Position numbers and translations under genes: made by a program
NCBI GenBank assembly: GCA_964434195.1
Contig: CAYSUI010000001.1
Span: 8,931 to 72,930, forward strand
Length of the DNA stretch: 64,000 nucleotides
Reading direction: 5' to 3'
DNA from: an uncultured Candidatus Saccharibacteria bacterium
Lineage (GTDB): Bacteria; Patescibacteriota; Doudnabacteria; UBA920
Shown: piece by piece, positions 506 through 27,144 of the stretch
How the letters are laid out: the number at the start of each line of letters is the position of its first letter
How positions within the stretch are numbered: position 1 is the first letter of the stretch
Notes under the pieces: model-generated
Database searches by the model: none
Seen by the model: only the letters and a program-made list of their open reading frames with translations
Told to the model about the DNA's origin: nothing

Positions 506-514
506 TACACTTTT

Positions 515-4542: not shown

Positions 4543-4615
4543 GTTATTTGGCAATAAGAAAAAATTTATGTATATTAGCTATTCGTATACTACTCGCTAA
4601 ACCTAGGAGGAAAAG

Positions 4616-4918: not shown

Positions 4919-4961
4919 TTAATAGACTGGTATTTTTTTATAAAAAAATAGGACATTTGTC

Positions 4962-5762
4962 CTATGGTATTAATTTATGAAGCCTTTCTACTCTCTGGTA
5001 GTAAGTAGGGTGACTTGCGTAAATTTTCTCTATCAAATTTCCCTTCTTACTTTTTTCTGAAAGATGTGAGCAAATTATGCGAAAAGCTTCCAAATACTTT
5101 TCCTTCCCTACGGTAAGGGCTGCTACCAAATCTGCCTGATACTCGTTTTGCTGCCTGTACTGGTTAAAAAATATTGGACAGAAAACGACAATGAAGACAA
5201 TATCCCAGAAGACTTTTAATAACCAAACACCGTCTGTGCCATGGGTAAGAATATCGTGGTATGTCGAGACTATCCAGATAAATGCTAGATATAACCCAGG
5301 CAAAAGAAGAGTAATTATTAACTGACTCCAAAGCGCATCATGACTAGCCACGTGCGCTTTCTCGTGAGCAAGAATGGCTTCTATTTGCTCTTCAGAAAGT
5401 TTATTTCCCCAGTAGATAACGACGGGTCTAAAAGGAAAATAACTTAATACTAGCATGTTACTATTTTCGGAATCCTTACTAATGAAAAAAGGTTGCTTAT
5501 AAACCGGAATTAAGCATGGTTTAGACAATTTAGCTTTTTTGAGATATGCGTAAAGATTCACAAGCAAACCTACTATTACTAAACTTGGCACTAGCATAAT
5601 AAGGAGTCGTGTCATAGATGCTTTAATTATCAGATTTATGAGCTCTGGAAATTTGGGGAGTACCATGAGGAATACCCATAGGTTAAACATAACTGCAACG
5701 AGCGCAAAAACTGATTTACGCTTGAAACCATTTCTTAAAACGGTTTTTATTTGCTGATCCAT
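4962..5762 (-). CDS. Membrane-embedded zinc metalloprotease, M48/M56-like (HEKAH motif).
   Basis: HExxH (AHEKAHVASHD) read in the translation, flanked by TM helices. Confidence 0.5.
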   Translation of the reverse strand: MDQQIKTVLRNGFKRKSVFALVAVMFNLWVFLMVLPKFPELINLIIKASMTRLLIMLVPSLVIVGLLVNLYAYLKKAKLSKPCLIPVYKQPFFISKDSENSNMLVLSYFPFRPVVIYWGNKLSEEQIEAILAHEKAHVASHDALWSQLIITLLLPGLYLAFIWIVSTYHDILTHGTDGVWLLKVFWDIVFIVVFCPIFFNQYRQQNEYQADLVAALTVGKEKYLEAFRIICSHLSEKSKKGNLIEKIYASHPTYYQRVERLHKLIP

Positions 5763-5873
5763 TTTTCACCTCCTATTTTTGTGAAATTTGTTTATACCAT
5801 ATTTATAAAAATAAGTCAAGTGTAAATAAAAAATCCTACATTCTGTAGGTTATAAATAGCAGGGTTTTATCTC

Positions 5874-6248
5874 TTAGTCTTTCGGGGAAATGTATACATC
5901 GTATACCTGTCCCCTTGGGGCGTTTAGCCATCTCCACACTTCATCTTTTGTGGGAGGTTTTTCGTTCTTGAGGTAAGCAATTTTTTCTCTCTCGATAGCC
6001 TCTTTTCGGAATCTGGGAAGGGTGGATTTTATTTCTTTTTCTAGGGTATGCAAATCTAAACCCTCTAAACCCACCTTCATTTCTTCGTACCCCGCTTCGA
6101 AGGCCTGATACTGAGCCTCCACTTTTTGCATTATAGATTCTTGCACCTCGGGGGGTAAGCCCTCGAGGAGCTGCGCGTCACTCATTTTGTAAATATTAAC
6201 AAAATGCTTTTCATTTTTCTCAACCTCTGAATTTTCCTTATCTGGCAT
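5874..6248 (-). CDS. Hypothetical protein (124 aa).
   Basis: ORF track. Confidence 0.4.
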   Translation of the reverse strand: MPDKENSEVEKNEKHFVNIYKMSDAQLLEGLPPEVQESIMQKVEAQYQAFEAGYEEMKVGLEGLDLHTLEKEIKSTLPRFRKEAIEREKIAYLKNEKPPTKDEVWRWLNAPRGQVYDVYISPKD

Positions 6249-10395: not shown

Positions 10396-13300
10396 CTATT
10401 GTTCGGAATATTTTAGAACGGCTCCACCATAGGCTTCGTAGTATTCTATTTTAATTTCGTGGGCGCCGGCGGTTAGGTTTTTGGTTGCTGTGTAGGTGGT
10501 ACTGCCTTGGTCTTTCCATTTGTCTATTACTAGTTCGCCGTCTATGTAGAGTCTTACGCCGTCGTCTGCGGTTACGGTGAAGGTTTTGTTTCCTGCTGGG
10601 TAGTTCTGCAGTTTAGTGAAGCGGCAAGAGAACTGGTCTACAGGCACACTTGCACTAGGACTACCCCCGTTCCAGACAAAATTAATATCTTGGTAATTGG
10701 CAATGTAAATTGGACTGCCTTGTAAGCTTGTTCCGTTATAACAGCTTGCAAAGAAACCAGCGGGACCGGTTTGTTTGTTTATGTTTAAAGCAAGTCTTGC
10801 CCAAAGAGTTCTGTCGTAAAATTCTACCTTTACTTCGTGGAGACCTGCTGACATTTGCTTGGTAGCTGTGTACGTAGTTGTACCGTGGTCGTTCCATTGG
10901 TCTAGTATTTTTTCTCCGTTTATATAGAGTCTTATACCGTCGTCAGAAATAGTTTCGAAATTATATAGACCGTCTTCGAAAAGTTTTTTTGCTTTGGCTT
11001 CCACTATAAAGAACTCTGGAGCTACTCCTGTGGCAGGTGCGTTGTTGCCCCAAGTGAAATCTATATTTGGACTTGTGGTTGTTGCGAGTGGTGGCGTAGT
11101 GGGAATTTGAGGAACGAGAGTGAAGGGTGCGTTTGGGAAGTTCCAAAATATTAGCGCGTAGTCTGTAGGAATATTTACCGGAGTTATGTCGCCTACTCTT
11201 TGGTAGTTAGCTATAAGTACTGCACCACCACTGGCTTCGTAGTATTCTACTTTTATTTCGTGTTCTCCGGTTTGCAAGTCTACTTCTCCACTGGTAGTTC
11301 TACTGCCGTGGTCGCTCCAATCGTCTACTACTTTTTTACCACCTACAAATATTCTGCAACCGTCGTCACAGGTTTGGGTAAATTTATACTTACCACTCTG
11401 TAGATTCACTTTTTTTGTAAAACGAGCGGAAAAAAAATCTGGTTGAATTTTAGGGTCTGGACTAAGAGCGTTCCAGACGAAATTTATTTCTTGGTCGTTT
11501 CTTACTAAAGCTGGTGTGCCCGTAAGATTTTTGTTGTTGAAAAATTCGGATGTAAAAGAATCTACTGGCGGTACTGTTGCGACTTTAAAGTTGGCAATGT
11601 AAGTAGTATCTGTGTTTGGTGTGGCTATAGTATGAGTCTGCGCTCCGCCGTCGCTCCAACTTTCGAATACGTAGTTTATGCCATTTAAGGTTTGATTTGG
11701 GGCTTCTAGAATTCTATTAATACCAACGACTCCAGAAAAAGTTTGTGGAGATACTTTTGGCTGACTGTCGATATTAATAATCATTCCCTCGGGATTACTC
11801 TTAACAACCAAATTACTAATTCTCGGAAAAATATCCAGTTCTTTAGTAGTAGTTAACCCAAATGAATCTTTTGCCGTAACAATTATTTTATACCAAACAT
11901 CAGGAGAAACCTCTCCTTCTGCAGGGATTACGAATGAGCCTTTTCTACCAGTGAAAGGTGCAATGAAAGGGTGAAAATGAACATTGTGATGAAATCTTAC
12001 TTCTGTAGTAAACGCAGAGTCAGGCAAAATTTTCCCGTCGCTATCCATAGCTGAAAACTCATAATTTATCGTATCACCCGCTTTATATAGAGTGCTTGGA
12101 TTTGGTGATATAAAGCTTAAGACTGGTGGATTACTTACTTTCACAACAATCGGAGAAGTACTCACAGAATTTACCCCATCGCTTACTGAAAGAGTCACAT
12201 TAAACTGACCCTTGTTTACATATAAATGTGAAGGGTTCGGTTGTGTAGAAGTTTGTCCGTCTCCAAAATTCCAACTAAAAGACAAAGGTTTGCCTTCTGG
12301 ATCAGAAGAACCGCTACTGGAAAAATTAACTGTTAGTGGTGGCTGACCTTGTAGAGTATCTGCGGAAGATTTTGCTATGGGTAACAAATTACCCGTCGAA
12401 GAAAATATCTTAACAAGACTCCCTTTAAGTAGAGACAGATAATATAAGGCTCCGTCTGGTCCCTGTTTGAGATCTATTATGCCTATTGCGTCGGTATCAA
12501 AAGGTGCTTCTGATTGAGCTTCTATTTCACCATCTTCGTGCTCGTGTAAAATTACCCTTCTAATAAAACCCAGTGTGAAATCTCCATAGTAGTAATTATT
12601 ACTGAAATCTGGAGGGAAATTACTCCCCCTGAATACGAACCCTCCCATTATTGAGCCTCCTAGACTTGAGTTAGCACTTACGTGTGCATATGCGAACAAT
12701 GGATCTGTTAGTCCAGCACAATTATTTTGACATTTACCTTCCGTTTTTGGCCAACCATAGTTTGCACCTTTCTTTACAATATTCATCTCTTCCCAGGAGA
12801 GTTCCCCCACATCCCCTAAAAACAATTCGCCACTCGATTTATCTACCTGAAAACGAAATGGATTACGAAAACCAAGCGCCCAAATTCTTGGATCTGCACC
12901 AGGGGTAGACACGTATGGATTGTCTGAAGGTACTGTTCCATCTTTATTTATTCTTAAAACCTTCCCATATAAATTGGATAGATTTTGAACACGCGATGAA
13001 ATACTTCCGTCACCAATCGCAAGATATAATTTCCCATCGTTCCCAAAATCCAAAGCACCGCCTGCGTGGAAAGGGCCTGAATCTGACTGAGAATTAAATA
13101 TGACCACAGGAGCTTGAAAATCTGTATCTCCCTGACTATTAAATCTCACCACCTTGTGAAAGCCATCGGGAGCAATATAGTAGACATACAAAAAGTGGTT
13201 ATTGTTCCAATCTGGATCAACCGCTATACCATATACACCCAAAGCGTCTGTGCCTTTTACCGCCAACTGTGCAAAAGGTGTACCTAACACATTTCCATTT

Positions 13301-14556
13301 TTTATTATTTTAATCTTGCCGAATAACTCTCCAACAAAAATTCTTCCGTCTGGTGCAAATGTAAAAGTAGTTGGCGAACTTAAACCTGAAGATATGACCG
13401 ATTGTTTCTGAAACATACCCGCTTGAACCGGAGCCAATGGACCCTTAGCTCTATATATTTTTCCTGGTGAGATCGTAACGTAATAAATATTACCATCTGG
13501 CCCTTGTACTAGGTCTGTAATTGTACTTACTCCCGAATCGAATGGAATCTCTGTTCCAATTACCCCTGTTGCTGTGTCGTTGATCTTTAGACGACTAATA
13601 CGAGCCTGCGAGAAATCTGCAAAAAAATATGAGCCGTCGTATTCAGGAGGTAGGTTATAGCTCCGACTAACAAAACCACCTACTATTGCACCAGTATTAT
13701 GACCATTGACCGTTGTGTGGGGGTATACATAAATAGGATCGATCAAGCCACCGCAATTAATAGTGCATTTACCCTCAGCTAGTGGCCAACCGTAATTCTT
13801 ACCTTTCTCTACTATATTTATTTCTTCCCATGTAGATTCTCCAACGTCTGCAAGCAATAGCGTACCTTTTACAGAATCGAACTGAAATCGGAATGGATTC
13901 CTAAAACCATATGCCCACACTCTTTGTTCTTTTCCTGCTTGTCCGAAATATGGATTGTCGCTTGGAATAGTTCCGTCTGAATTTATTCTTAGTAGTTTAC
14001 CTAGTGGTGAACTAAGGTCTTGGACTTTGAAAGTTAGACCACTGTCTCCTATTCCTATATAAAGTTTTCCGTCTGGACCAAAGTGTATTGCGCCACCAGC
14101 ATGGTTACTACCAGCAACTACACCGGACTTATAAACTTCTACCCAATTACCGGAACTTGCGTCTCCGCTTGCGTTTACTTTCCATACTTTATGGAAGCCG
14201 TCTGTTTTGTCTATGAAATAAATATATACAAAAGGACTAGTGTTCCAATTTGGATCAAAAGTTATACCCAAAGCTCCACGATCCGAATCCGCAAAAGCAG
14301 GAACACTGCCAAAAGGCGTTGCTAATAGAGTGTTGTTTTTATAAATTTTTATGCTTCCACCTTGCTCAACCACAAAGAGTCTACCGTCTGGTGTAAAACC
14401 AATTGCAGTAGGGTTGTTTAGACCAGCACCAACCAACGTGTCTGTAGTAAAACCACTTGGTGGAGCGGCTTTTGCTTGTGAACTAATAAGCAAAAAGAAA
14501 CCGAGTATGAGAGCAAAGGCTTCCAATGCTAAACGAGCTTTGAATTTCATATTCAA
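10396..14556 (-). CDS. 1386-aa secreted multidomain surface protein: signal peptide, 2x glucose/sorbosone-dehydrogenase-like beta-propeller, PKD domain, 3x PA14 domains.
   Basis: Duplicated GFRNPFRFQFD and GFRNPFRFQVD signatures. PKD-like WNFGDGQTS..HLYVNKGQFNVTLSVSDG. Three PA14-like DDGCRIFVGG, DDGIRLYINGE and DDGVRLYIDGE blocks. Confidence 0.75.
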   Translation of the reverse strand: MNMKFKARLALEAFALILGFFLLISSQAKAAPPSGFTTDTLVGAGLNNPTAIGFTPDGRLFVVEQGGSIKIYKNNTLLATPFGSVPAFADSDRGALGITFDPNWNTSPFVYIYFIDKTDGFHKVWKVNASGDASSGNWVEVYKSGVVAGSNHAGGAIHFGPDGKLYIGIGDSGLTFKVQDLSSPLGKLLRINSDGTIPSDNPYFGQAGKEQRVWAYGFRNPFRFQFDSVKGTLLLADVGESTWEEINIVEKGKNYGWPLAEGKCTINCGGLIDPIYVYPHTTVNGHNTGAIVGGFVSRSYNLPPEYDGSYFFADFSQARISRLKINDTATGVIGTEIPFDSGVSTITDLVQGPDGNIYYVTISPGKIYRAKGPLAPVQAGMFQKQSVISSGLSSPTTFTFAPDGRIFVGELFGKIKIIKNGNVLGTPFAQLAVKGTDALGVYGIAVDPDWNNNHFLYVYYIAPDGFHKVVRFNSQGDTDFQAPVVIFNSQSDSGPFHAGGALDFGNDGKLYLAIGDGSISSRVQNLSNLYGKVLRINKDGTVPSDNPYVSTPGADPRIWALGFRNPFRFQVDKSSGELFLGDVGELSWEEMNIVKKGANYGWPKTEGKCQNNCAGLTDPLFAYAHVSANSSLGGSIMGGFVFRGSNFPPDFSNNYYYGDFTLGFIRRVILHEHEDGEIEAQSEAPFDTDAIGIIDLKQGPDGALYYLSLLKGSLVKIFSSTGNLLPIAKSSADTLQGQPPLTVNFSSSGSSDPEGKPLSFSWNFGDGQTSTQPNPSHLYVNKGQFNVTLSVSDGVNSVSTSPIVVKVSNPPVLSFISPNPSTLYKAGDTINYEFSAMDSDGKILPDSAFTTEVRFHHNVHFHPFIAPFTGRKGSFVIPAEGEVSPDVWYKIIVTAKDSFGLTTTKELDIFPRISNLVVKSNPEGMIINIDSQPKVSPQTFSGVVGINRILEAPNQTLNGINYVFESWSDGGAQTHTIATPNTDTTYIANFKVATVPPVDSFTSEFFNNKNLTGTPALVRNDQEINFVWNALSPDPKIQPDFFSARFTKKVNLQSGKYKFTQTCDDGCRIFVGGKKVVDDWSDHGSRTTSGEVDLQTGEHEIKVEYYEASGGAVLIANYQRVGDITPVNIPTDYALIFWNFPNAPFTLVPQIPTTPPLATTTSPNIDFTWGNNAPATGVAPEFFIVEAKAKKLFEDGLYNFETISDDGIRLYINGEKILDQWNDHGTTTYTATKQMSAGLHEVKVEFYDRTLWARLALNINKQTGPAGFFASCYNGTSLQGSPIYIANYQDINFVWNGGSPSASVPVDQFSCRFTKLQNYPAGNKTFTVTADDGVRLYIDGELVIDKWKDQGSTTYTATKNLTAGAHEIKIEYYEAYGGAVLKYSEQ

Positions 14557-14614: not shown

Positions 14615-16186
14615 TCAGAGTAACTTACTATTTTCTATTGAATATTCCTTCTTCAAGGGTACTACCCATAATGTGAAGACACATATAACTATTGACGTAC
14701 CTGCGAGCAGATAGTAGTAAGTTATCGGTCTCATCTTATCCCTTAGGAACGTGTTGTATAAAAAAGTACCATTCTCTCCTCTTTGAACAAATTTATAACC
14801 TGTCCAAAAATTTAGAGGTCTTATATACAAATCGAGTTCAGATTCTGGCTTAGGAATTATATGATTTTTCCCGACCACGCCGAGCAACGACACAGCTGAA
14901 GCATAGGAGAAAAGCAAGAGAGCTAATAACTTTCTACCCAAGACATATTTTCTTCCAGAAAGCCATACACCGAAATAAATAGCCGCGCATGGTATAGATG
15001 GTATTAGATATCTTGGGCCCCATCCCCACCCTCCCCAGGGATCATGAAAACTCGCATATAGAAATAGATTAACTAACATTATACCAAGTGGAATAATTAA
15101 ATCTGGATTTAAATTTTTTCTGAGCTTCCACAGACCCAAGAAACTAAAAAAATATATTGGATAAAAAATCCATAGACCCTTATTAGTCTGAAACAATATG
15201 ACCCATAGACCATTGATGAAACTAGTCTCGTTCAGGCTGTAGGATATGGCTTCTTTCTCAGAAGCAACTTTTTCAGTATCCTCTTTGGTAACTTCTTCAA
15301 ATGTATCTTTAAAATGAGGAGCATATCTTGGAAGAGAATTGCTAAATCTTTTCCAATTGTCGAAATTTTTATAGTTATAGACGACATGCATGCCAATCCA
15401 TACACTTATAACTAGCATACTGAGTAGAAATGAATTTCGCACCGACACTTTGTAAGAACTTGAAAAAATTGAAACCTTAACTCCTGATACCAAGAAATAT
15501 ATCAATATTGGCGACATCAAAATTAAATTCGGATAATCGAAAAATATCGAAGCGCCGAAACATGACCAGAATAATGAAGCCCAAAGAAATCCAAATTTTA
15601 TACTATTCCTATAACGATATACACTATAATATGCAGTTAGTAGGAAAAATACCGAAGGTACATGCTGGTAAAAAGTAATTACAAAATTTAGAAATGTAGA
15701 ACCTATACCTGTACTTATAACAACAAAGCAAGCAGTCCACACAGGTAGCTTAAATATTTCTTTTGAGATCTTAAAAAGCACTATTAGACTTAATACTGCA
15801 AAAATAATTTCTGTTGAGTAAACAAAGAATAAAGACAAATTAAAATATTGACCTAATTTATAAAACGGTAAACCTACATAAGCTATACCAGGCGGAAAAA
15901 AACTAAAGAACCTACCTTTATAAAATCCTGCGTCTGGAGCTGATACATCGGCTAATTCCCTAGTAAGATCCACCTTATTTCTTTCTGCTAAAGACAACAG
16001 AGTGGCATAAGATGAACGTTCGTGGGATAACTCGAAAGCACTTATTTGTCCGTTATACGGAGGTTGCAAAAGTGGAGACTTACTATCTACGTTCCCCCCC
16101 ACTGCTTTGGTTGAAGATAAATAAAACAGCACTATAACGATCAAGCCCAAACATGCGAATATATTTCCAAAAATTTTATTTTTCAT
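14615..16186 (-). CDS. Polytopic membrane protein, GT-C/PMT-like glycosyltransferase candidate.
   Basis: 523 aa, many TM helices, DPWGGWGWGPRY loop. Sits in the glycan cluster. Confidence 0.45.
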   Translation of the reverse strand: MKNKIFGNIFACLGLIVIVLFYLSSTKAVGGNVDSKSPLLQPPYNGQISAFELSHERSSYATLLSLAERNKVDLTRELADVSAPDAGFYKGRFFSFFPPGIAYVGLPFYKLGQYFNLSLFFVYSTEIIFAVLSLIVLFKISKEIFKLPVWTACFVVISTGIGSTFLNFVITFYQHVPSVFFLLTAYYSVYRYRNSIKFGFLWASLFWSCFGASIFFDYPNLILMSPILIYFLVSGVKVSIFSSSYKVSVRNSFLLSMLVISVWIGMHVVYNYKNFDNWKRFSNSLPRYAPHFKDTFEEVTKEDTEKVASEKEAISYSLNETSFINGLWVILFQTNKGLWIFYPIYFFSFLGLWKLRKNLNPDLIIPLGIMLVNLFLYASFHDPWGGWGWGPRYLIPSIPCAAIYFGVWLSGRKYVLGRKLLALLLFSYASAVSLLGVVGKNHIIPKPESELDLYIRPLNFWTGYKFVQRGENGTFLYNTFLRDKMRPITYYYLLAGTSIVICVFTLWVVPLKKEYSIENSKLL

Positions 16187-16198: not shown

Positions 16199-17458
16199 CT
16201 AACTTACATACTTGCTTATATACTCCAGAACGTGATCGTTACCCCCCGGTAACTTTTCCAACTTTGACTCTAAAATTTCTAAATAAGCACTTCGCTTATT
16301 AATAAGGCTCTGAAATAGGCTCAGTAGTTTTTCGTGACTTAATGAACCTATATCTACCACCCACTCACCCAGACCAAGTTCATCCATTATACCCTGGGTT
16401 TTGTATTCATAGGCAATAGCGATACAAGGAATACCTGAAGTTAATGCGAATATATTAGAGTGCATCCTGGTACCAACCAAATAATCCAGGTTATCATATA
16501 GCCCCTTCATCTCATCATAACTGAATTCATCTTCTATAAAAAATAATCTTTTATTATTTTTCAATTTTTCCGCTATTCTTTTTGAGGGAAACCTGTCATC
16601 GTCTTTACGCTCCGTGTCTGTAACTTGTGGCAATAGTAATATATTATGGGTTTTTGAAATTTTTTCTATGAATTTAGCTATCTCACTCTCATAATAATCC
16701 TGATCCTTCAAACTAAACCAATCCCTTACTGTAATACCGACCAAGGGAACACTTCGGTCTATGCTCATAGATTCTATAACTAAACTCATTAAATCTTTTG
16801 TATTGGTGTTGGAATAAAATGCAGCATCGAAAGCCCTATCAAACTTATCTTTATTAATACCCCAAACTAAAAGTTGCTGATTTGAAATATTTTCTCTTAC
16901 AAAAATCTTATCGATTCTGGAAACAGTAAACCTCACTACTCTTTCTTGGAATATATTTCCAAAAGGCCCTATTGATTGAGGATACGCAACTACTGGTTTT
17001 CCTAATACTTTTCCTAGAATAAAAGGGAGGGACTGCAAAATCAGTGCAACTGTATTATTGAAACCAGACTTGGCTGATAAATAACCCCCACCGACGGGGA
17101 TTATGATATCGCTATTAGCGTACTCTAGCATTACCCTATCCATACCTGAGGGTAAAATTATATTAAAATTTATATCCAACAATTTTTTTGCCGACGACCA
17201 TATAAAGACAGCAACAAATACATGAAGTGTGTGCATTGCTTTGAAGAGCTTGGCATCTGCCCTATAAACAGCATAGTAAAACATTGAATGAATTAATCTT
17301 CGTCCTTCGAAAAATTTATCATTCACAAAAGACTCGGAAGATTCTAATACTATTTCTGAGTTTGGAAATCTAGCCGATAGGTCACGGATCATGCACCCTA
17401 CTATTGCGGCATCTCCTTTATTTTTCGTTGTAGCTGCGTTTGTTAGTAAGATTTTCAT
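16199..17458 (-). CDS. Polysaccharide pyruvyl transferase family protein (CsaB/WcaK-like).
   Basis: N-terminal MKILL..KNKGDAAIVG motif typical of the family. Confidence 0.55.
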   Translation of the reverse strand: MKILLTNAATTKNKGDAAIVGCMIRDLSARFPNSEIVLESSESFVNDKFFEGRRLIHSMFYYAVYRADAKLFKAMHTLHVFVAVFIWSSAKKLLDINFNIILPSGMDRVMLEYANSDIIIPVGGGYLSAKSGFNNTVALILQSLPFILGKVLGKPVVAYPQSIGPFGNIFQERVVRFTVSRIDKIFVRENISNQQLLVWGINKDKFDRAFDAAFYSNTNTKDLMSLVIESMSIDRSVPLVGITVRDWFSLKDQDYYESEIAKFIEKISKTHNILLLPQVTDTERKDDDRFPSKRIAEKLKNNKRLFFIEDEFSYDEMKGLYDNLDYLVGTRMHSNIFALTSGIPCIAIAYEYKTQGIMDELGLGEWVVDIGSLSHEKLLSLFQSLINKRSAYLEILESKLEKLPGGNDHVLEYISKYVS

Positions 17459-18548
17459 AACTTAATACGGTCTGCAAAAATTCAGAATATCTATCAGAAA
17501 CCTTTTCCCAACTATAACTTTTTACATAGCCCCTCGCCGCACTGCCCATTATTTTTCTTTGTTCGGAGTTCTTTGAAAGATCTAACATAGCTTTAGATAG
17601 AACCTTAGGGTTTTCAACATCTACTTTAACACTGGCTATATCTGGAACCCAAGAAAAACCTGGTATTGACGATACCAAAATGGGTAAACCAAAAGCAAAA
17701 GCTTCATACACAATTAAGGGAAAATTCTCATAGCGGCTAGGTGCTACCAAGAATGCACTTTGTCTGAAAACTTGATGTTTCTCTTCTCCTTCTAAACGGC
17801 CGAGAATTTTTACCTTATTAACAAGATCCAGCTTTACTATTTTCTTTTTTAAGAAATCTTCATCCCCAGGAATACCTTTACCAACCAGAACCAAAGGTAG
17901 ACCAATTTCGTTCTCCACTAATTTATATGCATCGATCAAAATATCTAAACCTTTTTGATTTACGTCTATCCTGCCAATAAATAGTATGTGCTTATTTTCT
18001 GGTTCGGAATTTTCTTTTAGGAGTTCTGGATCTACCCCATTTGCGATTACTGCTGTGTCTATTCTTGGATTAATATACAGAACTTTTTTCTTCAAGCTTT
18101 CCGTAAGCACTATGCAGTATTTGTAATACTTTAGCCCTGTTTGCTCTATAATATGGAAAGGTAATTTGTATTTCTTTGCCATTTCCTCTCCACCCAACAG
18201 ATGGGTAAGACCAACAACTGGTTTTTTTGTGAATAGTGGTAGGAATGCAGTGGAAAATGGAGGAGTAAAACTCTCTAACCACACATCAAATTTCTCTTTC
18301 TTTACATAGAAAGGTAGTAGAAACTGAAATACTAATTGCGCAAGCTGCGGAGGGAGTGAAGCAATTCCGATTCGTTTATAAAGAACCCCATCTAGTGTTT
18401 CGTTTTTTGAATTGGGGTACTTACCTGTAATAATCATTACATCTGCATTCCCAGCTAGCCTCTTAGCTACTTCATGCACAGCAACAGCCCCACCACCACC
18501 ATAGTAAGGGTTATTTAAGGAATCATAATTTGAAAAAATTATTTTCAT
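17418..18548 (-). CDS. Glycosyltransferase family 4 (GT-B).
   Basis: GGGAVAVHEVAKRL near the N-terminus and E..FGLPILE-type C-terminal motif (YEAFAFGLPILVS). Confidence 0.75.
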   Translation of the reverse strand: MKIIFSNYDSLNNPYYGGGGAVAVHEVAKRLAGNADVMIITGKYPNSKNETLDGVLYKRIGIASLPPQLAQLVFQFLLPFYVKKEKFDVWLESFTPPFSTAFLPLFTKKPVVGLTHLLGGEEMAKKYKLPFHIIEQTGLKYYKYCIVLTESLKKKVLYINPRIDTAVIANGVDPELLKENSEPENKHILFIGRIDVNQKGLDILIDAYKLVENEIGLPLVLVGKGIPGDEDFLKKKIVKLDLVNKVKILGRLEGEEKHQVFRQSAFLVAPSRYENFPLIVYEAFAFGLPILVSSIPGFSWVPDIASVKVDVENPKVLSKAMLDLSKNSEQRKIMGSAARGYVKSYSWEKVSDRYSEFLQTVLSYENLTNKRSYNEK

Positions 18549-18550: not shown

Positions 18551-19453
18551 CTAATTCAGATCTTTAGTGGTAATATTTAACTCATACACATCCTTATAGT
18601 TTGCTTTAGGCAATAACTTATCTAATAGAATTGTAAAAACTTGAAGTACTAAATATAAAAATGTATAAAGTGGACTACTTATCAAAAAGTATATTAGCGC
18701 TCTAAGTTTTTCTTTAATTGAGGGAGTATATTTTTCTATGATATCTTTATCAAAAAATTTACTAATTGTATTAGGGGCATTAAAATACCTACGCATTTGC
18801 CTTATATAATCCATGCTTTTACTAGGTAACCTAAAATTAACGAGGGCTTCGGGAACATATCTAAATTTATAGTTATTAGTAATTGCAAAGAAGAAACTAT
18901 AAGTGTCTTCAACCCTATCAGCTTCTTTAGGTAATTTAAAATGCTTATAAAAATTCCGAGAGAACCCACGCGCTCTCCCTAAACACCTATGCATATCACT
19001 TCTTTCTTTTAGACTGATTAGCAATCGCTCCCAAATCAAAATCCCCTGAAATGCCAATCTCTCGATTAAAGTATTCGGTGGCAATGGATATATTTTGGGA
19101 GATACTATATCCGCACCATTTTTTATTTCACTTACTAAAGCATCCAGAACATTATTATCAGATAACTTAGTATCAGCATCAAACTGAATGAGTATATCGG
19201 TGTCTGCTGTACTTAATAATTCATTAAACCTAAAGGCTTTCCCCTGTCTGTCCTTGTGATCAATTAACTCCACCAACTCGTTATTGACCCTAAGGGCTTC
19301 CTTAACTGTTAAATCAGAGCTCCCGTCTGATATTACTACTATTTTTTTTAGATCGAAATTTCTTCGATCTTGTAGTAGAATCTGATTAATAAGATTGTAA
19401 ATATTTTTTTCTTCGTTATAGGCTGGTATACCAACAGTTAAATTTAACTTCAT
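18551..19453 (-). CDS. Glycosyltransferase family 2 (GT-A).
   Basis: VGIPAYNEEKNI, DGSSD and DAD motifs. Confidence 0.7.
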   Translation of the reverse strand: MKLNLTVGIPAYNEEKNIYNLINQILLQDRRNFDLKKIVVISDGSSDLTVKEALRVNNELVELIDHKDRQGKAFRFNELLSTADTDILIQFDADTKLSDNNVLDALVSEIKNGADIVSPKIYPLPPNTLIERLAFQGILIWERLLISLKERSDMHRCLGRARGFSRNFYKHFKLPKEADRVEDTYSFFFAITNNYKFRYVPEALVNFRLPSKSMDYIRQMRRYFNAPNTISKFFDKDIIEKYTPSIKEKLRALIYFLISSPLYTFLYLVLQVFTILLDKLLPKANYKDVYELNITTKDLN

Positions 19454-21040: not shown

Positions 21041-21853
21041 CTAGGAAACATACCCAACCGTTATAACCAAGGGTGGCGGAACCAAAAAAAGTGTTTGGTG
21101 CTCAACCTCACCGAGCCAACTTTCCCACTCGTAGGCAAGAGAACTGTTCCCTCTCTCACCCAGCAATACAGAGTGGATGATATCGGCCACCTCTTGTAGC
21201 TCTGCGCAATACTCTCCGGCTGGTCTTTTAATCCTGACATTGTCCACATGCTGAAACTGCAGTTGCCGGAACAGGTAAGGGTTTTCTCCCCCCTGGAAAG
21301 GGTTAGCACCCAACCAACCACATGAGAGAAAATATAATCTCTTGAACTCACCCACGAGTCTCATGTTTTTCTCTCCTGGAATTGGCCAGAGAGCCTCGGG
21401 GTCGGAGAGGTCCCAGTTTATGGCTAATGCGGCCTTACCTGCTTGCGAAAGCGCTCTATTTACAATCTTTCTGCGGTCGGCTGTGTTTTCATGCATGAGA
21501 GAACCGTTCATCATGACGAACTCAGCATCGCACTCGTAGGAAGCCGTGGTATCGAGCCACGAAACTCCTTTATGTTCGACGGACCGAAGCTTGTGGATCT
21601 GGGCATCCACCTCTCTATGGTCTGCACCTACCGCACTGTAATGAACCCCTTTGTCCTTGAGTTCATTTACCACTTCAAGACTGATACCGCTATGGCCCAA
21701 AACTTCCATAACCCCTACCGGAGTATCCGAAAACCCTGTTCTCCCTTTTAGTAGTAACAAGGTTTTGAGAGCAACTTGGTTTACGAGCTCTCTACCATAT
21801 AGGTCTGACTCAATAAAGCCAAGATAGTCTTCCTGACGTAAATATTTATTCAT
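21041..21853 (-). CDS. Hypothetical protein, possibly a Rossmann-fold SAM-methyltransferase-like enzyme (weak).
   Basis: VMEVLGHSG..AVGADHREV resembles methyltransferase motifs I and II. This is inference. Confidence 0.4.
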   Translation of the reverse strand: MNKYLRQEDYLGFIESDLYGRELVNQVALKTLLLLKGRTGFSDTPVGVMEVLGHSGISLEVVNELKDKGVHYSAVGADHREVDAQIHKLRSVEHKGVSWLDTTASYECDAEFVMMNGSLMHENTADRRKIVNRALSQAGKAALAINWDLSDPEALWPIPGEKNMRLVGEFKRLYFLSCGWLGANPFQGGENPYLFRQLQFQHVDNVRIKRPAGEYCAELQEVADIIHSVLLGERGNSSLAYEWESWLGEVEHQTLFLVPPPLVITVGYVS

Positions 21854-21984
21854 AACGTTCTCCTATGGTTTGTGAATTGGGAAATAAGGTCGTATTATAC
21901 CATTTTTAATAAGGATGGTCAAATATTATATTTTAAACTTATTTAAAAACCCTTCTTTTGAAGGGTTTGGTTATTGTTTTAGTT

Positions 21985-24900
21985 TTATGGGACTTGGGTT
22001 ACTCGGTTAATAATGTCTAAGGCGTGATCTGAGGACTTCTCCCAGTCGAAGTTCTTTGCCCAGCTTAGGGCATTTCTACCCATTACAGTTCTTTTGTCTT
22101 CGTTTTCTAAAACGTGACTTATTTTTTCTGCAAACTTGTGATGGTCGCCGTGGGGCACGAGAAAACCAGTTAGTGGGTTTTTTACGCTATCTCTTAAGCC
22201 CGCTACGTTACTTGCTACTACCGGTACACCGCAAGCATTGGCTTCTATAGTTGTTATACCCCAGCCTTCCATAAAACTTGGGTTTACAAAGACCCAGGCT
22301 TTTTGGTACCAGTCTAGTTTTTCTTCTTCGGTTATTTTTCCGGTGAATTCTATTTTTTCTAGCACACCTAAATCTTCCGCGAGTTTTTTTAATGGTAAAA
22401 ATTCTTCTCCCCCACCTGCAATTACCAGTTTTGCGTTATCTACTTTTTTTGCAACTATAGCAAAAGCTTTTACTAGCACGTCTACAGATTTATATGCTTT
22501 TAGTCTTCCTAAGTACAAAATAGTTGGGTCTTCGCTTTTGGTTCCTGGTTGGTAAATTCTCGTGTCTATACCCGGGTTTACTACTTCTATGCCTGCACCA
22601 GTAATACCAAACTTTTCCATTTCGCTTTTACTGGACTCGGAAACGGTTATAAATTTTACTTTGCTGTAGACCCTAGGCATTAACCAGTTTTCCAAGACAC
22701 TCGCAAACCAAGCGAGTGGTTTTGGTAAGTACCTATAGAAGACATCTTGGTGGACATGGTGAAGTATTGTAACTATGGGTGGTTTTGCATATAGAGGTGT
22801 AAAGAATGGAATACCGTTATGACAGTCTACTAACACGTCGAAATTTTTTCTAAACTTAAGCATGTAGTATATGAATGCCCAAAAGTAGACTGTATAAAAA
22901 CCACCGTGGCGTATAATCTGAATACCGTCTATGGTTTCTTGTTGGGTGTTTTTCCCGTCTTGTCCGCAGAATTCCGTAACACTATTCCCCTCTTTTACCC
23001 AACGCTTCATTAGTTCATGGATATATATTTCTGCACCACCGGCGAAAGCGTGTTTGGTGTCGCGCCAGTTAAAAACTAGAATACGTTTACCTAATGGCGC
23101 GGATTGGACAGGAATGTCTTTAAACAGATACTTTAGGTCTCTGAGATTGGAATATATAGAGTAAGATTCTTTTTTTACTATGTGAAGAATAGAGACAAGA
23201 ATTAGATAACTAGCACTTATATATAATTCCGCATTAATAAAATCCCAAATTGTACTATGGTCTAGGAAAAGCAAAATACAAAGTCCCAGTGTATTTGCCA
23301 AGGAAACAATAACAAACGAGTAATGTTTTCTTACTAAGTGGTAACTGTTAATAAAAGCCGCCAAAGAGAAAAGGATCGTAGCGAATATGTATGTATTTAT
23401 ATATTGCATTACTGGTAGCACCTTGGCTCCAAACAAAATTGGAAGAGTTAAACTTCCAAGAGGCCCTAAGGCAATACCAGATGCAAGCGAAAGCATTGCG
23501 GTTCCCGCAAGCAAAAGGTAAAATTTTCTGTCCGGATTTTTTCCTAAAGCTATTTCTTTACTTACGATTGGCACTATGAATGTTATAAGCAATGTTCCTA
23601 TGGTAAACACCATTCTGCCAATGAGAGAGACCATACTGTACTGCCCCGCAATGTCTGGTGATAGATAGTGTTTGGCAAGTAAGACATCCGCACTTAAAAA
23701 TGCAGCGGTAGAAATACCTGTTGCCGTAACGGCGAGATAAAAACGTTTTGGGAAATTTTTAGCAAAGGGTTCCACGGGTAGTTTTTCTGTTTTAGTTTTA
23801 CCCAGTAGATACAAACCAGAAATTAAGACCGTAGAAAGCCCAGCGGCGATTGAGAAAGGAATAGAAGCAGATACCCAGTTAGACTTACCAACAAATACAG
23901 CACCCATACCAAACATTAATTTAGCGGAGGACTCTACTAACACACTCACGGCCACAAGACCGAATTTTAACCAGCCTTGTAATAAACCTCTGTAGGCGAC
24001 TAGAACTAGGACCAAAAAGAATGTTGGAGAGAAACTATAAAATACTAAATCTGCAGGCATTCTGAAAAATCCAGCTACTACTGGAGCGAACGCCACCCAA
24101 ACTACTGTAGCCATTAGACCTACAAGTAAAAAATATTTTTGGGAATTTTTGAAAAAATGCGAAGCCCAAGAGGCTTCATATTTATTTGTTAGGAAAGTCA
24201 CTCGGTGGTTTATGGATGCGTTTAACCCCCATGCGAATACGCTAAACAAACCGAGCATTGTATTGAACGCATTTACAACTCCAAATTCTGCATAAGAAAC
24301 TTTTCTTCCCAAATATGCACTAAAAACAAAATTTAAAAAGTTTGCTACTAACATAGCTGCAATAAGAGCCCCACCACTTCCTAAAGTTTTGTACTTTTTC
24401 CAGCCGATATTTTCTTCGTCTATTGCTCCCCCACTTTCTGCTGCTAGGTGAAGACCGTGGACGGTTTTGGCCCAGTAATGGGGTTTGGTTATTACTTCCC
24501 AGACACCTTTCCAGGCGGCAATACTCATACCTAACCAGTACAAAGGAACTAGAAATGCATATTTAATAAGATCCCAATAACCGCGTTTTGCCAGACCAAT
24601 CATGTAGTAGTACAGGTACAAGAAATTTCCGAATATTAGACAGACTACGCCAGTATATAAAACAGGTGCTGGGAAAAAACTTTCTATGAATGCACCGTAC
24701 TGACTTCTGAAGGCAAAATATAAAATAGTTACTAACCACATGAAGGGGTTAATAAAGAGGCTTAGAATTTTTCCACCAATTATAAACTGAAGAGAAATAA
24801 TATGTGGCTTTTTTACCCCATGCCATAGTTGCCCTGGCCTTCTCATGTGAACTAAGTAGGTCATTATGTAGCCCTTTATCCAGCGACTTCTTTGGCGGTA

Positions 24901-26031
24901 CCAGTTAAGCGCGTTACTGTTGGCTTCCTCGTATGTAGTACTTTCTATAATTGCTGTGCGGTAACCTCGCTTGGCCATACGAAGACCTAGGTCTGCGTCT
25001 TCGGTTACGTTGAATGCGTCCCATCCGGACATTTTTTTTACGTCTTTGGTGCGAAAGTGATTACTGGTTCCACCAAGTGGAATTGGTGCGTTAAGTGTTT
25101 GCAGTCCGGTTAAAACTAGGTCGAACCAAAGACTGTACTCGGCGACAAAAAGACGAGTGAGTAAGTTTTGGTGAGGGTTGTAAAAATTTAGTTTTGCTTG
25201 TACACAGATAACTTCTTCTGGGAGTTTTTTTAGTGCGAGGTATGCTTTTTTTAATTGGTCGGGTTCTGGTTTGTCTTCGGCGTCGTAGATAACTAAAAAT
25301 TCTCCGCGGGCTTTTGTGAGCCCGTAGTTCATAGCTTTAGGTTTGGTTTTGGGTTTACTATCCGGCACAACTACAACTTCTACATAACTAGGAAGATTCA
25401 TTTCGTTTACCTTGTCTATAGTTTTGGTGTCGTCTTCTTCTAGCAATAGCATTACCTGAAGTTTTTCTTTGGGCCAGTCGAGGGCTTCCATAGCTTCTAG
25501 GAACTGAGGGACGACTTGCCATTCTTTATATAGAGGGCAGAAGATTGTGTAGGTAGGGAGGGAATGGATTCCCGACTTCTCGGGAATGACACCTATATTG
25601 TCTAGTTCTTCTTGAGTGGATAGGATTTCTGATGGTTTTAGGAAGCTGCGGAGTATTAGGAATCCGTTAAAGAGTAAGTCGGCAAAATACAAGAAAGTTA
25701 TGAGGGCGAAAAATACCACTAGGGTTATATGCCAGTTTATTAGGAAAGCAATTATTAACAGAAGACCAAACCCGAGTAGGATAATTTTTTGTTCGAATGA
25801 AAAAACAAAAAAAGCGGTCTCTTCGTAACCAAGATCTGAGTGGAAAATAAAATTCTGATTTTTATATTTTAATCCCCTACCTTTTCTGCCGAAATGAAAA
25901 GGAGTAACTGTAGTGGGTTCTTTTTTGAACGTGTAAACAAACTTCTTTGTCTTTGAAAATAAATTTTCTTTTTTCAGAGATGAAGAAACTTGTGGTTCGG
26001 TATTTAGGTTTTTGTTTTTCCAGATGTGCAT
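21985..26031 (-). CDS. 1348-aa fusion protein: N-terminal TM anchor, processive GT2 domain (DAED, QRSRW), MOP/Wzx-like multi-TM flippase block, C-terminal GT4 domain.
   Basis: YDAEDKP and QRSRWIKG motifs, about 12 central TM helices, C-terminal EGWGITTIEANACGVPVVAS. Confidence 0.7.
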   Translation of the reverse strand: MHIWKNKNLNTEPQVSSSLKKENLFSKTKKFVYTFKKEPTTVTPFHFGRKGRGLKYKNQNFIFHSDLGYEETAFFVFSFEQKIILLGFGLLLIIAFLINWHITLVVFFALITFLYFADLLFNGFLILRSFLKPSEILSTQEELDNIGVIPEKSGIHSLPTYTIFCPLYKEWQVVPQFLEAMEALDWPKEKLQVMLLLEEDDTKTIDKVNEMNLPSYVEVVVVPDSKPKTKPKAMNYGLTKARGEFLVIYDAEDKPEPDQLKKAYLALKKLPEEVICVQAKLNFYNPHQNLLTRLFVAEYSLWFDLVLTGLQTLNAPIPLGGTSNHFRTKDVKKMSGWDAFNVTEDADLGLRMAKRGYRTAIIESTTYEEANSNALNWYRQRSRWIKGYIMTYLVHMRRPGQLWHGVKKPHIISLQFIIGGKILSLFINPFMWLVTILYFAFRSQYGAFIESFFPAPVLYTGVVCLIFGNFLYLYYYMIGLAKRGYWDLIKYAFLVPLYWLGMSIAAWKGVWEVITKPHYWAKTVHGLHLAAESGGAIDEENIGWKKYKTLGSGGALIAAMLVANFLNFVFSAYLGRKVSYAEFGVVNAFNTMLGLFSVFAWGLNASINHRVTFLTNKYEASWASHFFKNSQKYFLLVGLMATVVWVAFAPVVAGFFRMPADLVFYSFSPTFFLVLVLVAYRGLLQGWLKFGLVAVSVLVESSAKLMFGMGAVFVGKSNWVSASIPFSIAAGLSTVLISGLYLLGKTKTEKLPVEPFAKNFPKRFYLAVTATGISTAAFLSADVLLAKHYLSPDIAGQYSMVSLIGRMVFTIGTLLITFIVPIVSKEIALGKNPDRKFYLLLAGTAMLSLASGIALGPLGSLTLPILFGAKVLPVMQYINTYIFATILFSLAAFINSYHLVRKHYSFVIVSLANTLGLCILLFLDHSTIWDFINAELYISASYLILVSILHIVKKESYSIYSNLRDLKYLFKDIPVQSAPLGKRILVFNWRDTKHAFAGGAEIYIHELMKRWVKEGNSVTEFCGQDGKNTQQETIDGIQIIRHGGFYTVYFWAFIYYMLKFRKNFDVLVDCHNGIPFFTPLYAKPPIVTILHHVHQDVFYRYLPKPLAWFASVLENWLMPRVYSKVKFITVSESSKSEMEKFGITGAGIEVVNPGIDTRIYQPGTKSEDPTILYLGRLKAYKSVDVLVKAFAIVAKKVDNAKLVIAGGGEEFLPLKKLAEDLGVLEKIEFTGKITEEEKLDWYQKAWVFVNPSFMEGWGITTIEANACGVPVVASNVAGLRDSVKNPLTGFLVPHGDHHKFAEKISHVLENEDKRTVMGRNALSWAKNFDWEKSSDHALDIINRVTQVP

Positions 26032-26052
26032 GTAGTTTTATACCGGGAAACT

Positions 26053-26084
26053 AACCTCCTCCGCCCGTTTGAGCGGAGGAGGTT
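26053..26084. terminator. GC-rich hairpin AACCTCCTCCGC-ccgtttga-GCGGAGGAGGTT (12-bp perfect stem).
   Basis: Read directly. Lies between two minus-strand genes. Confidence 0.45.
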
Positions 26085-26106
26085 GTATTTAGTTTTTACT
26101 ATTTGT

Positions 26107-27144
26107 TTAGTAAGGAGACTGGGAAAGTTGGCTTAGAAGACCAATGAGAACTGCATAGTCTGCAGTATTGTTGTTTGCTAGTGCAAATTGTACCTGCATC
26201 ATAAGGTCTTTAAACATGGAATTTTGGTCTAGGGTTACTCCGTTAGAAAGAGTTACACTAGTAGTTCCCCATGTCGACCAGCAACCAAGGTTACCCCAAA
26301 GGATGTCCTGTACTGGAGCGGAACCTGCACCGCCGTTTTTATAAAGAGACATTTGCATTGCAAGATACCAACCGAGAAGCTTTCGCTGGTCGGTAGCATT
26401 AAAAGCTGTAGCTTTTTGGAGAGCAATGTTTACATGATTTGAATGACCGTTAACGTTGCTTGGAATGTTGTTTGGAATATTTACAGTTCCACCTGGACGC
26501 TTGTTTGGCCACAGTTTAAAATATAGCGCGTCGTTGAATTCGAAGGTGTGACATTTCCAGCTTAGAGATGGATCGCAACCAGCGTGTAGAGACTTAACTG
26601 CATCTAGGTCGAAAGCATCTGCAGTTGGTTCGAATGTTGCTGGGTTTGTAACGTCTGTTATTCTTACGAATTTTGCACAGGTAATGTTTGGGGAGAAGTC
26701 ATAAGAACTATCTCTTACATCTTGAACTGGTGTGGACAAGAACCAAGTAGAGCCGTCTTCGCTAGCTTCTACCATAATAGCTTCATCTTGATAGCCTGGA
26801 TTTGTGGATTCGAAAACGGTTACATCGAAACCAGCATCGTTTTTAATTCCACCGTCGAAACCAAGAACAATGCTTCCTCCAAAACCAAGACTGAAGAAAG
26901 TACCGTTTACTAAACCTGCATCGTCTGGTGTACCTGTTGTTTCGGCAGCACCTAGTGCTTGAGTAGCATCGCTTCTAATTACATCGACAGGACTACCGTC
27001 TTTTCTTAATCCTTGAGAAGCAGAGACTACTGTGTCTGCCCACGGACCAACGCCGTCTGGGGCTGCGGCGAGAGCCAAAGGAGCTACAGATGCAGAAAGT
27101 GAGGCAGCTGTAAGAGCTCCGGCGAGAATTCGCTTTAGATTCAT
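26107..27144 (-). CDS. Secreted hypothetical protein (Ala-rich signal peptide).
   Basis: N-terminal MNLKRILAGALTAASLSASVAPLALAAAPDG. Confidence 0.5.
   Translation of the reverse strand: MNLKRILAGALTAASLSASVAPLALAAAPDGVGPWADTVVSASQGLRKDGSPVDVIRSDATQALGAAETTGTPDDAGLVNGTFFSLGFGGSIVLGFDGGIKNDAGFDVTVFESTNPGYQDEAIMVEASEDGSTWFLSTPVQDVRDSSYDFSPNITCAKFVRITDVTNPATFEPTADAFDLDAVKSLHAGCDPSLSWKCHTFEFNDALYFKLWPNKRPGGTVNIPNNIPSNVNGHSNHVNIALQKATAFNATDQRKLLGWYLAMQMSLYKNGGAGSAPVQDILWGNLGCWSTWGTTSVTLSNGVTLDQNSMFKDLMMQVQFALANNNTADYAVLIGLLSQLSQSPY

Follow-up and report, generated by a model that had tools for sequence, protein, structure and literature searches.

Synthase-dependent and Wzx-dependent export are taught as alternative polysaccharide routes. 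A synthase-dependent route to O antigen is represented by WbbE/WbbF of Salmonella O:54, and the Wzx-like flippase GacK acts in a glycosylation system that runs from a family 2 glycosyltransferase (GT2) through a flippase to a glycosyltransferase of the GT-C type. In the Patescibacteria, also called the candidate phyla radiation (CPR), the envelope mediates an epibiotic, host-dependent lifestyle, and envelope chemistry is essentially unknown. Here we analyzed a gene in a 64-kb window (the whole 64,000-nucleotide stretch of contig CAYSUI010000001.1, from an uncultured bacterium of the Doudnabacteria lineage) that joins a GT2 resembling the cellulose and hyaluronan synthases BcsA and HAS, a flippase-like block of the MOP superfamily, and a family 4 glycosyltransferase (GT4) in one polypeptide. 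Tentatively, and with slightly less than even confidence, we read this protein as a membrane enzyme, conserved in Patescibacteria, that works as an "assembly line" for a glycoconjugate of the cell surface: a lipid-linked glycan made in the cytoplasm would be flipped by the MOP block and transferred outside by GT-C enzymes, with the GT2 providing backbone or extension.

One conserved chain with GT2, MOP, and GT4 blocks

A sequence-only reading of the window had proposed a single polypeptide of 1348 amino acids (aa) comprising a processive GT2 synthase, a Wzx/MOP-like block of about 12 helices, and a GT4. We recovered exactly these bounds for an uninterrupted open reading frame (ORF) with an ATG start and a TAA stop (21985..26031, minus strand), together with the motifs that had been quoted for it (DAED at aa 250-253, QRSRW at aa 380-384, and EGWGITTIEANACGVPVVAS at aa 1255-1274). 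Pfam matches to GT2, Polysacc_synt, and GT4 families were all above gathering scores, confirming the presence of three blocks in one chain. The layout below was derived from hydropathy, alignment conservation, and two overlapping AlphaFold2 (AF2) models, one covering aa 60-990 (mean per-residue confidence, pLDDT, 86.8; predicted TM-score, pTM, 0.61) and one covering aa 530-1348 (pLDDT 88.5, pTM 0.71); TM denotes a transmembrane helix.

21985..26031, minus strand: whole ORF; GT2 synthase-like block, MOP flippase block, and GT4 in a single chain
25768..26031, minus strand: basic N-terminal tail, aa 1-88; 15 K/R, poorly conserved, predicted cytoplasmic
25639..25767, minus strand: TM1-TM2 hairpin ahead of the GT2 domain, aa 89-131 (hydropathy and model)
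24805..25638, minus strand: GT-A catalytic domain of the GT2, aa 132-409 (Pfam and motifs)
25273-25284, 24997-25005, and 24880-24894, minus strand: GT2 motifs DAED250, TED343, and QRSRW380, respectively
24448..24804, minus strand: aa 410-528, containing TM3 and TM4 (aa 410-482), an amphipathic helix (aa 486-515), and the motif of the next line (model and conservation)
24448-24480, minus strand: near-invariant P517-HYWxKTxHGxH528 motif (alignment conservation)
24379..24447, minus strand: linker from GT2 to MOP, aa 529-551; pLDDT ~30, column identity 17%, ratio of nonsynonymous to synonymous substitution rates (dN/dS) 0.08
23125..24378, minus strand: MOP/Wzx-type block, aa 552-969, with 12 membrane helices (aa 552-954) and a terminal amphipathic helix (aa 956-968) (Pfam, AF2 models, fold match)
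23083..23124, minus strand: short basic tether, aa 970-983, predicted to keep the GT4 next to the MOP block on its cytoplasmic side
21988..23082, minus strand: GT4 with a predicted GT-B fold, aa 984-1348 (Pfam, EX7E motif, fold match)
22243-22269, minus strand: invariant EX7E motif, E1255-E1263

An ORF of this kind could arise artificially, through a missed stop or frameshift or through a chimeric assembly joining three adjacent genes, and two observations point in this direction: versions split into GT2 and MOP-GT4 occur in related genomes, and a pair of overlapping ORFs on one contig (L008) suggests a frameshift. Against this, the identical 1348-aa product was present on at least seven independently assembled contigs from at least four sequencing runs, and more than 100 full-length homologs exist, all with the order GT2-MOP-GT4. 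Alignment to a homolog that is 93% identical (L086) extended over all 1348 codons with zero indels. Codon comparison with the same homolog gave dN/dS values of 0.18 for the GT2 catalytic domain and 0.04 for its membrane part, 0.08 for the GT2-MOP linker, 0.055 for the MOP block, 0.056 (0.06 when rounded) for the MOP-GT4 junction including the short tether (aa 953-983), and 0.08 for the GT4, so that purifying selection acts on every block and on both linkers (0.04 to 0.18). The identical ORF across runs, the full-length homologs, and the dN/dS values together exclude a missed stop, frameshift, or chimera for practical purposes; we found no stop or frameshift between the domains, and we consider an artifact extremely improbable. 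On the L008 contig itself, from Roizmanbacteria (365-5006), one GT2-MOP ORF and one MOP-GT4 ORF overlap where an intact fusion would be expected, the break being a frameshift, a pseudogene, or a sequencing error.

The fusion is a large conserved family in Patescibacteria. Among the matches listed, a protein search returned at least 120 clusters at the 90% identity level with scores of 1284-2917 bits, most of them with 94-100% query coverage and 45-93% identity and the remainder aligning in more than one piece. The named sources of the listed full-length homologs were all Patescibacteria (Doudna-, Parcu-, Roizman-, and Niyogibacteria). When we sorted 80 loci, drawn from one genome per species, by the three query modules, 12 contained fused GT2-MOP-GT4, 10 had GT2 and MOP-GT4 as adjacent genes, 4 had GT2 and MOP only, 1 (L046) had a GT2-GT4 protein without MOP, and 53 had the GT2 core only. 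Fused and split forms were found in Doudna-, Woese-, Gottesman-, Roizman-, Parcu-, and Saccharibacteria. The architecture had been called unusual, which holds in relation to characterized systems but not in the sense of rarity, given these clusters and loci.

The GT2 core without the other two modules is also found, with 45-56% identity, in Chloroflexota, Ktedonobacteria, Actinobacteria, and Firmicutes (e.g., Clostridium drakei and Paenibacillus thalictri). In these phyla outside CPR its fusion partners are between one and five copies of MshEN, a receptor domain for cyclic di-GMP (c-di-GMP), or a PMT_2 GT-C domain at the C-terminus. E. coli NfrB, an exopolysaccharide synthase activated by c-di-GMP, has the same MshEN-GT2 layout (PMC8669469). 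In CPR, many homologs are extended by domains of other kinds, either an N-terminal soluble GT2 or, after the GT4, a NodB-type deacetylase (Polysacc_deac_1) or an APH kinase.

Several individual loci in the survey merit mention. A Chloroflexota protein of 1317 aa (L053, 7442-11395) places five tandem MshEN domains ahead of the same GT2 core, and the proteins of L060, L063, L068, and L071 fall in its length class. A Saccharimonadales locus (L017, 1157-18605) contains within 18 kb one fused gene, three more GT2-core paralogs, a stand-alone MOP gene, and a GT4 gene, which is a local expansion of the GT2/MOP/GT4 system. In a Doudnabacteria locus (L087), a PAS-GGDEF-EAL protein (3702-5945), a response regulator, and an extracytoplasmic function sigma factor are encoded 4-7 kb upstream of the fusion, hinting at c-di-GMP signaling in a CPR bacterium. 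Among the loci with Patescibacteria-typical genes, L003, L013, L015, L019, L025, L026, L029, L031, and L037-L042 come from metagenome-assembled genomes titled "uncultured Gammaproteobacteria" or "Pseudomonadales", and these titles of third-party records are probably mistaken.

Predicted folds and topology of the three blocks

Over aa 159-439, the N-terminal block matched Pfam Glyco_trans_2_3 (76.7 bits) and Glyco_tranf_2_3 (67.3 bits) above gathering scores, and the DAED, TED, and QRSRW motifs were invariant in alignments of 32 and of 45 homologs. Its best solved sequence relative was E. coli BcsA (E value of 1e-12), with the DxD, TED, and QxxRW motifs aligned. Foldseek comparison of the modeled GT2 with its TM helices returned XlHAS1 (8smp; E value of 2e-10 over 510 columns), CvHAS (7sp7), and BcsA (4p00 and 9b8v), with ~460-510 columns aligned, membrane helices included, at E values from 2e-10 to 1e-8. 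These sequence and model comparisons support assignment of the block as a BcsA/HAS-like membrane-embedded synthase. The motifs and flanking TM helices behind the earlier description of a processive synthase were present, and processivity itself is predicted from the motifs and the fold. NCBIfam scores were far below the equivalog cutoffs for CelA (76 versus 699 bits), BcsA (60 versus 992), PgaC (42 versus 422), and NodC (17 versus 550), and because no threshold was approached we regard the block as an uncharacterized BcsA/HAS-like subfamily. We also considered a polyprenyl-phosphate sugar synthase of the GtrB/DPMS type for this block and rejected it, since TED and QxxRW are invariant and the predicted fold is HAS/BcsA-like.

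The middle block matched Polysacc_synt (PF01943) over aa 555-825 with 37.0 bits against a cutoff of 28.2, or 40.4 bits when the block was scanned alone; 11 of 24 MOP relatives matched the same family, and the others matched PF13440 or MatE. Both AF2 models predicted 12 TM helices. The closest solved fold was that of WzxE (9g95; TM-score of 0.71 over 430 columns, root mean square deviation [rmsd] of 5.2), at a sequence identity of ~14%, followed by MATE transporters (ClbM, TM-score of 0.63). A PDB sequence search with the block, as a single sequence or as a 24-member profile, returned only spurious G protein-coupled receptors, and an NCBIfam scan of the block gave no match. Polar residues within the helices were kept at N564, N567, R576, E700, K704, D782, K787, and H788. 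Together, these data support a MOP/Wzx-type fold, as the sequence-only reading had suggested from the helices, with flipping as the predicted activity. An exhaustive representative search with the block found 1908 related clusters; among the best 58 of these, 25 were stand-alone proteins, 22 had 300-400 extra C-terminal residues, and 7 had the block in the middle of a triple fusion. Those C-terminal extensions that we checked were MOP-GT4, MOP-GT2, MOP-GT4-GNAT, and MOP-GT4-GT2 arrangements.

The C-terminal block matched Glyco_transf_4 (PF13439; 66 bits, aa 998-1157) and Glycos_transf_1 (PF00534; 155 bits, aa 1162-1322), retained the EX7E motif, and resembled MshA, BshA, and PimA in its modeled fold (TM-scores of 0.78-0.79; MshA 3c4q, TM-score of 0.79 and rmsd of 3.3), all of which supports the assignment as a canonical retaining GT4. 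Scores for named equivalogs were lower than the cutoffs (MshA, 129 versus 462 bits; BshA, 93 versus 274), and PelF was absent from the best 25 of 55 GT4 profile matches.

Use of nucleotide sugars requires cytoplasmic catalytic domains. In the predicted topology, K and R made up 30 of 165 residues in cytoplasmic loops versus 3 of 61 in outside loops, supporting placement of both catalytic domains inside the cell. This positive-inside pattern, together with the 12 modeled MOP helices, supports a topology in which the N-terminal tail lies inside, TM1-2 lead to an inside GT2 domain, TM3-4 are followed by an inside amphipathic helix and gating-loop-like motif, and the 12-TM MOP block, with both ends inside, leads to an inside GT4. 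Mean column identity to the window protein was 0.68 for the GT2 domain, 0.66 for the GT2 membrane part, 0.38 for the MOP block, and 0.59 for the GT4.

The membrane part of the GT2 raises the question of how its product would leave the cell. HAS has six membrane helices and BcsA has eight. The GT2 core has four of its own (TM1-2 and TM3-4), short of a complete channel of six to eight helices. Stand-alone GT2 homologs (480-500 aa) terminate just after the HYWxKTxHG motif, and the HYWxKTxHGxH motif coincides with the location of the BcsA/HAS gating loop (FxVTxK/WGTR type), an equivalence judged by position only. One explanation would be a self-contained route for one lipid-anchored polymer, similar to the synthase-dependent O:54 route of WbbE/WbbF, in which the GT4 puts a priming or adaptor sugar onto a lipid-linked acceptor, the GT2 elongates processively, and the MOP block carries the lipid-linked reducing end and/or supplies the helices that the 4-TM core lacks. 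It is favored by the point at which the stand-alone proteins stop, which is where HAS and BcsA add two channel helices and where the MOP block starts here, as well as by the invariant order of the blocks, by the L046 fusion tying both transferases directly together, and by the fact that a separate initiating enzyme or Wzy was not found in the operon. However, the linker between GT2 and MOP is disordered and poorly conserved and varies in length, and the model places the two domains relative to each other with modest confidence (pTM 0.61). In 10 of 22 cases a gene boundary separates GT2 from MOP-GT4, and other phyla have the GT2 core with no MOP at all. The conserved soluble glycosyltransferases (GTs), tailoring enzymes, and GT-C-like proteins described below imply instead a more complex glycan of the repeat-unit type, and we consider the self-contained route unlikely. 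A stronger version would make it a fourth, hybrid route of glycan export, in which a minimal 4-TM synthase unable to translocate alone uses the attached Wzx-type domain for a GT4-primed lipid-linked end or for channel completion, so that one chain primes, polymerizes, and exports. If true, such a route would dispense with a separate initiating transferase, Wzy, and an ATP-binding cassette transporter and would be a streamlined solution specific to the reduced genomes of Patescibacteria, but we regard it as a distinctly long shot.

Pairing of a GT4 with a 12-TM MOP protein also recalls PelF and PelG (PMC7112168), which suggests that the GT4 might polymerize, like PelF, and that the polymer might pass through the MOP block, the role proposed for PelG, with the GT2 making a second, independent polymer. 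That the commonest fusion class is two-domain MOP-GT4 and that polysaccharide deacetylase domains are fused in some homologs would fit this idea. The MOP block, however, did not match PelG (PF16933) and has WzxE as its closest solved fold, PelF was missing from the best GT4 matches as noted above, and PelD- or PelE-like genes were not found nearby in the window or in the neighborhoods of four other genomes. Considering as well that the numerous extra GTs and tailoring enzymes argue for a hetero-oligosaccharide, we judge a Pel-like division of labor to be very unlikely. A bona fide Pel system was rejected, as no PelG, PelF, PelD, or PelE signature was found in the MOP block, among the best 25 of 55 GT4 matches, or in these neighborhoods.

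Similarity of the GT4 to PimA, PimB', MshA, and BshA brings in a third alternative, a pathway for a glycolipid anchor or lipoglycan (compare the phosphatidylinositol mannosides, lipomannan, and lipoarabinomannan; the lipoteichoic acid anchor; or early glycosylphosphatidylinositol synthesis), in which the GT4 would glycosylate a membrane phospho- or glycerolipid at the inner leaflet, the MOP block would flip it, and GT-C enzymes would extend it outside. PIG-L deacetylase genes in homologous operons and the presence of probable GT-C partners are compatible with such a pathway, and failure to find a polyprenyl-phosphate initiating transferase fits an ordinary membrane lipid as carrier. MprF and PplT-GT provide precedent for fusions of a lipid enzyme with a flippase (10.1101/2022.03.11.483950). 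Yet the GT4 similarities are generic to the family and remain below equivalog thresholds, characterized MOP/Wzx proteins flip polyprenyl-linked glycans, and a BcsA/HAS-like GT2 with QxxRW has no counterpart in those pathways, making a lipoglycan pathway rather improbable.

Gene neighborhood and a GT-C-like partner

The window is ordinary chromosomal DNA of a low-GC (~39%) bacterium, with housekeeping genes for FtsZ/FtsA, HisRS, ribonucleotide reductase, ComEC, RelA/SpoT, and GroES/EL; no tRNA genes or Rfam matches were found in its 64 kb. Downstream of the fusion gene lie the following features, with counts of related loci in which homologs also lie downstream.

21947..21968, minus strand: terminator-like hairpin AAACCCTTC-AAAA-GAAGGGTTT with a T-rich run, 17 nt past the fusion stop codon
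19461..20393, minus strand: soluble GT2, 310 aa; homologs downstream of the fusion in 24 related loci
18551..19453, minus strand: soluble GT2, 300 aa; homologs downstream on the same strand in 28 related loci
17418..18548, minus strand: stand-alone GT4, 376 aa; homologs downstream in 29 related loci
16199..17458, minus strand: polysaccharide pyruvyl transferase, WcaK/CsaB-like, 419 aa; homologs downstream in 5 related loci
14615..16186, minus strand: polytopic membrane protein, 523 aa, probable divergent GT-C (PMT_2-like); homologs downstream in 22 related loci

The genes of this cluster are as the sequence-only reading had described them, except that the GT-C identity it gave to the 523-aa protein is moderately supported. 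Homologs of the stand-alone GT4 (38-44% identical) directly follow the fusion gene in many loci, and this recurrence of GT and tailoring genes downstream in related loci agrees with the proposed setting in a surface-glycan pathway, as far as a pathway may be predicted from gene content. In four other genomes, Pfam-annotated neighborhoods contained the fusion, a GT4, small GT2s, two polytopic proteins of 510-570 aa, some with PMT_2 matches, and often a CarboxypepD_reg-domain protein. Tailoring was represented in them by a pyruvyl transferase, a DegT aminotransferase, PIG-L, or a protein of APH-GT2-GT4 composition.

Among loci with at least 6 kb of downstream sequence, the family of the 523-aa partner was present in 16 of 19 three-module loci, 0 of 3 loci with GT2 and MOP, and 2 of 29 GT2-only loci; stand-alone GT4 genes were left out of this comparison because matches of the fused GT4 to itself inflate their number. 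Relatives in this family matched PMT_2 in 8 of 34 and 2 of 22 cases, one was TMEM260-like, and one was named "glycosyltransferase family 39" by its source record. E52 and P84-D85 were invariant in the first outside loop. The window protein itself matched the NCBIfam LA_3751/2 putative GT weakly (45.8 versus 200 bits) and had no match in a Pfam scan. Comparison of the family with the PMT_2 domain that is fused to the GT2 core in Thermogemmatispora and Ktedonobacterales by phmmer, hmmsearch, and hhalign found nothing significant, and a PDB search with the family profile found nothing. These sequence features moderately support the family as a putative GT-C.

Two ORFs lie between the fusion gene and the GT cluster, a lineage-specific 270-aa ORF and a small ORF on the opposite strand. 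The 270-aa ORF (21041-21853, minus strand) has no family match, and ahead of it, at 21894-21922, stands a sigma-70-like promoter (11/12 match, extended -10). Since no lineage other than this one (L086 included) showed the ORF, it resembles an insertion into an ancestral operon. The gene just upstream of the fusion encodes a 345-aa secreted protein (26107-27144, minus strand) with a signal peptide and no family match, whose position is kept in L086 and half of which is found in L009. Between these two genes, ending 20 nt ahead of the fusion ATG, a perfect 13-bp GC-rich hairpin (CAACCTCCTCCGC...GCGGAGGAGGTT, 26052-26085) without an Rfam match could either terminate the upstream gene or serve as a regulatory structure on the 5' side.

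The GT-C-like gene is followed directly by one for a 1386-aa secreted protein (10396-14556, minus strand) with two GSDH (glucose/sorbosone dehydrogenase) beta-propeller regions, PKD, three PA14 domains, and Big_7; homologs with 41-43% identity adjoin the GT2-core loci L027, L028, and L037. A second polytopic PMT_2 (GT-C) protein of 568 aa is encoded 20 kb from the cluster (1902-3608, minus strand), beside an EamA transporter gene.

Proposed pathway and comparison with known systems

MOP-GT4, the GT-C-like protein, the small GTs, and the tailoring enzymes form the tightest evolutionary unit, which suggests the grammar of a lipid-linked oligosaccharide pathway. The GT2 core is more independent and looks like a regulated exopolysaccharide synthase in other phyla, and we therefore take it as a supplier of backbone or acceptor or as an extender. 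Lipid-linked repeat units are the substrates of CsaB/WcaK-type pyruvyl transferases, which, like PIG-L deacetylases, work on the cytoplasmic side ahead of flipping. In the assembly-line pathway that we favor, the retaining GT4, held by a ~14-residue tether to the last MOP helix, would cooperate with the soluble GT4 and GT2s of the operon and with modifying enzymes (here the pyruvyl transferase; elsewhere PIG-L or NodB-type deacetylases, DegT aminotransferase, APH kinase, or GNAT). These cytoplasmic enzymes together would assemble a lipid-linked oligosaccharide at the inner leaflet and decorate it, the tether passing finished units straight to the exporter, and the fused Wzx-type MOP block would flip the completed unit. 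The co-inherited polytopic GT-C-like proteins may then transfer or polymerize the unit outside, while the N-terminal inverting BcsA/HAS-like GT2 would make a beta-linked backbone or acceptor glycan or extend the same lipid-linked glycan. Fusion would thereby enforce a 1:1 stoichiometry and the hand-over from synthesis to export in organisms with tiny genomes.

Several points weigh against this pathway. A channel-forming synthase would need no flippase, leaving the coupling of GT2 and flippase unexplained, and with a disordered linker and a pTM of 0.61 the model leaves the relative placement of GT2 and MOP uncertain. In this genome the fusion gene does not adjoin the GT cluster, the terminator-like hairpin and two unrelated ORFs lying in between. 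Neither the 10 kb around the gene in five genomes nor the ORFs scanned across the 64-kb window showed an initiating phosphoglycosyl transferase (Bac_transf, MraY/WecA type), a Wzy, or an LCP ligase. Assignment of the 523-aa partner as a GT-C is weak, and the activities of the whole family are predictions from sequence.

The fusion operon provides a concrete, widely conserved candidate for the major surface glycan of Patescibacteria. It also shares with other phyla one highly conserved GT2 core (45-60% identity) that appears with c-di-GMP receptors in free-living Terrabacteria and with a flippase and GT4 in CPR, and this different wiring of a shared core makes its product and export directly testable by heterologous expression.

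Like the synthases BcsA, HAS, and NfrB, the GT2 core combines a GT-A domain bearing DxD, TED, and QxxRW with membrane helices that flank this domain and with amphipathic helices at the interface. Its conserved loop motif (HYWxKTxHG), judged by position only, lies where BcsA and HAS have the FxVTxK/WGTR gating loop, and its non-CPR orthologs bear MshEN c-di-GMP receptors as NfrB does. In contrast to these synthases, the core has 4 TM (HAS has 6 and BcsA 8), lacks a PilZ domain, scores far under the equivalog cutoffs, and is followed in the chain by a flippase and a GT4. The MOP block resembles WzxE, the flippase for Lipid III of the enterobacterial common antigen, in its predicted 12 TM, in having both ends inside, and in keeping charged and polar residues within helices; it differs in its ~14% identity with no sequence-level match, in its covalently attached GT flanks, and in an operon in which no Wzy or initiating transferase was found.

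In its combination of a cytoplasmic GT4 at the membrane with a 12-TM MOP-superfamily protein, and in the associated deacetylases, the protein resembles the Pel complex of PelF and PelG, but PelG/PelF family matches, PelD, and PelE were not found in the scans described above, and the BcsA-like GT2 and an operon rich in GTs and GT-C-like proteins are additional. Three-component glycosylation (GtrB/CsbB, flippase, and GT-C, as in GacI-GacK-GacL) follows the same logic from GT2 to flippase to GT-C, and the GT2 core has a tie to GT-C of its own, being fused to PMT_2 in Ktedonobacteria and genetically linked to a GT-C-like protein here; in contrast to GtrB/DPMS systems, its GT2 is of the QxxRW synthase type, and a GT4 and tailoring enzymes are added. 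MprF and PplT-GT set the precedent for an enzyme covalently joined to the flippase that exports its lipid product, although these use the PplT fold, unrelated to MOP, on aminoacyl-phospholipids or glycolipids.

A full-text literature search found no description of a GT2-MOP-GT4 protein. Since the parts belong to known superfamilies and the fusion sequences are already public in databases under generic names such as "glycosyltransferase", we regard the protein as an uncharacterized variant of known parts rather than a new kind of system. What sets it apart is that the hallmark proteins of both export routes are joined in one conserved chain, or encoded by adjacent genes, across a whole phylum, which by "Rosetta stone" logic predicts that they cooperate.

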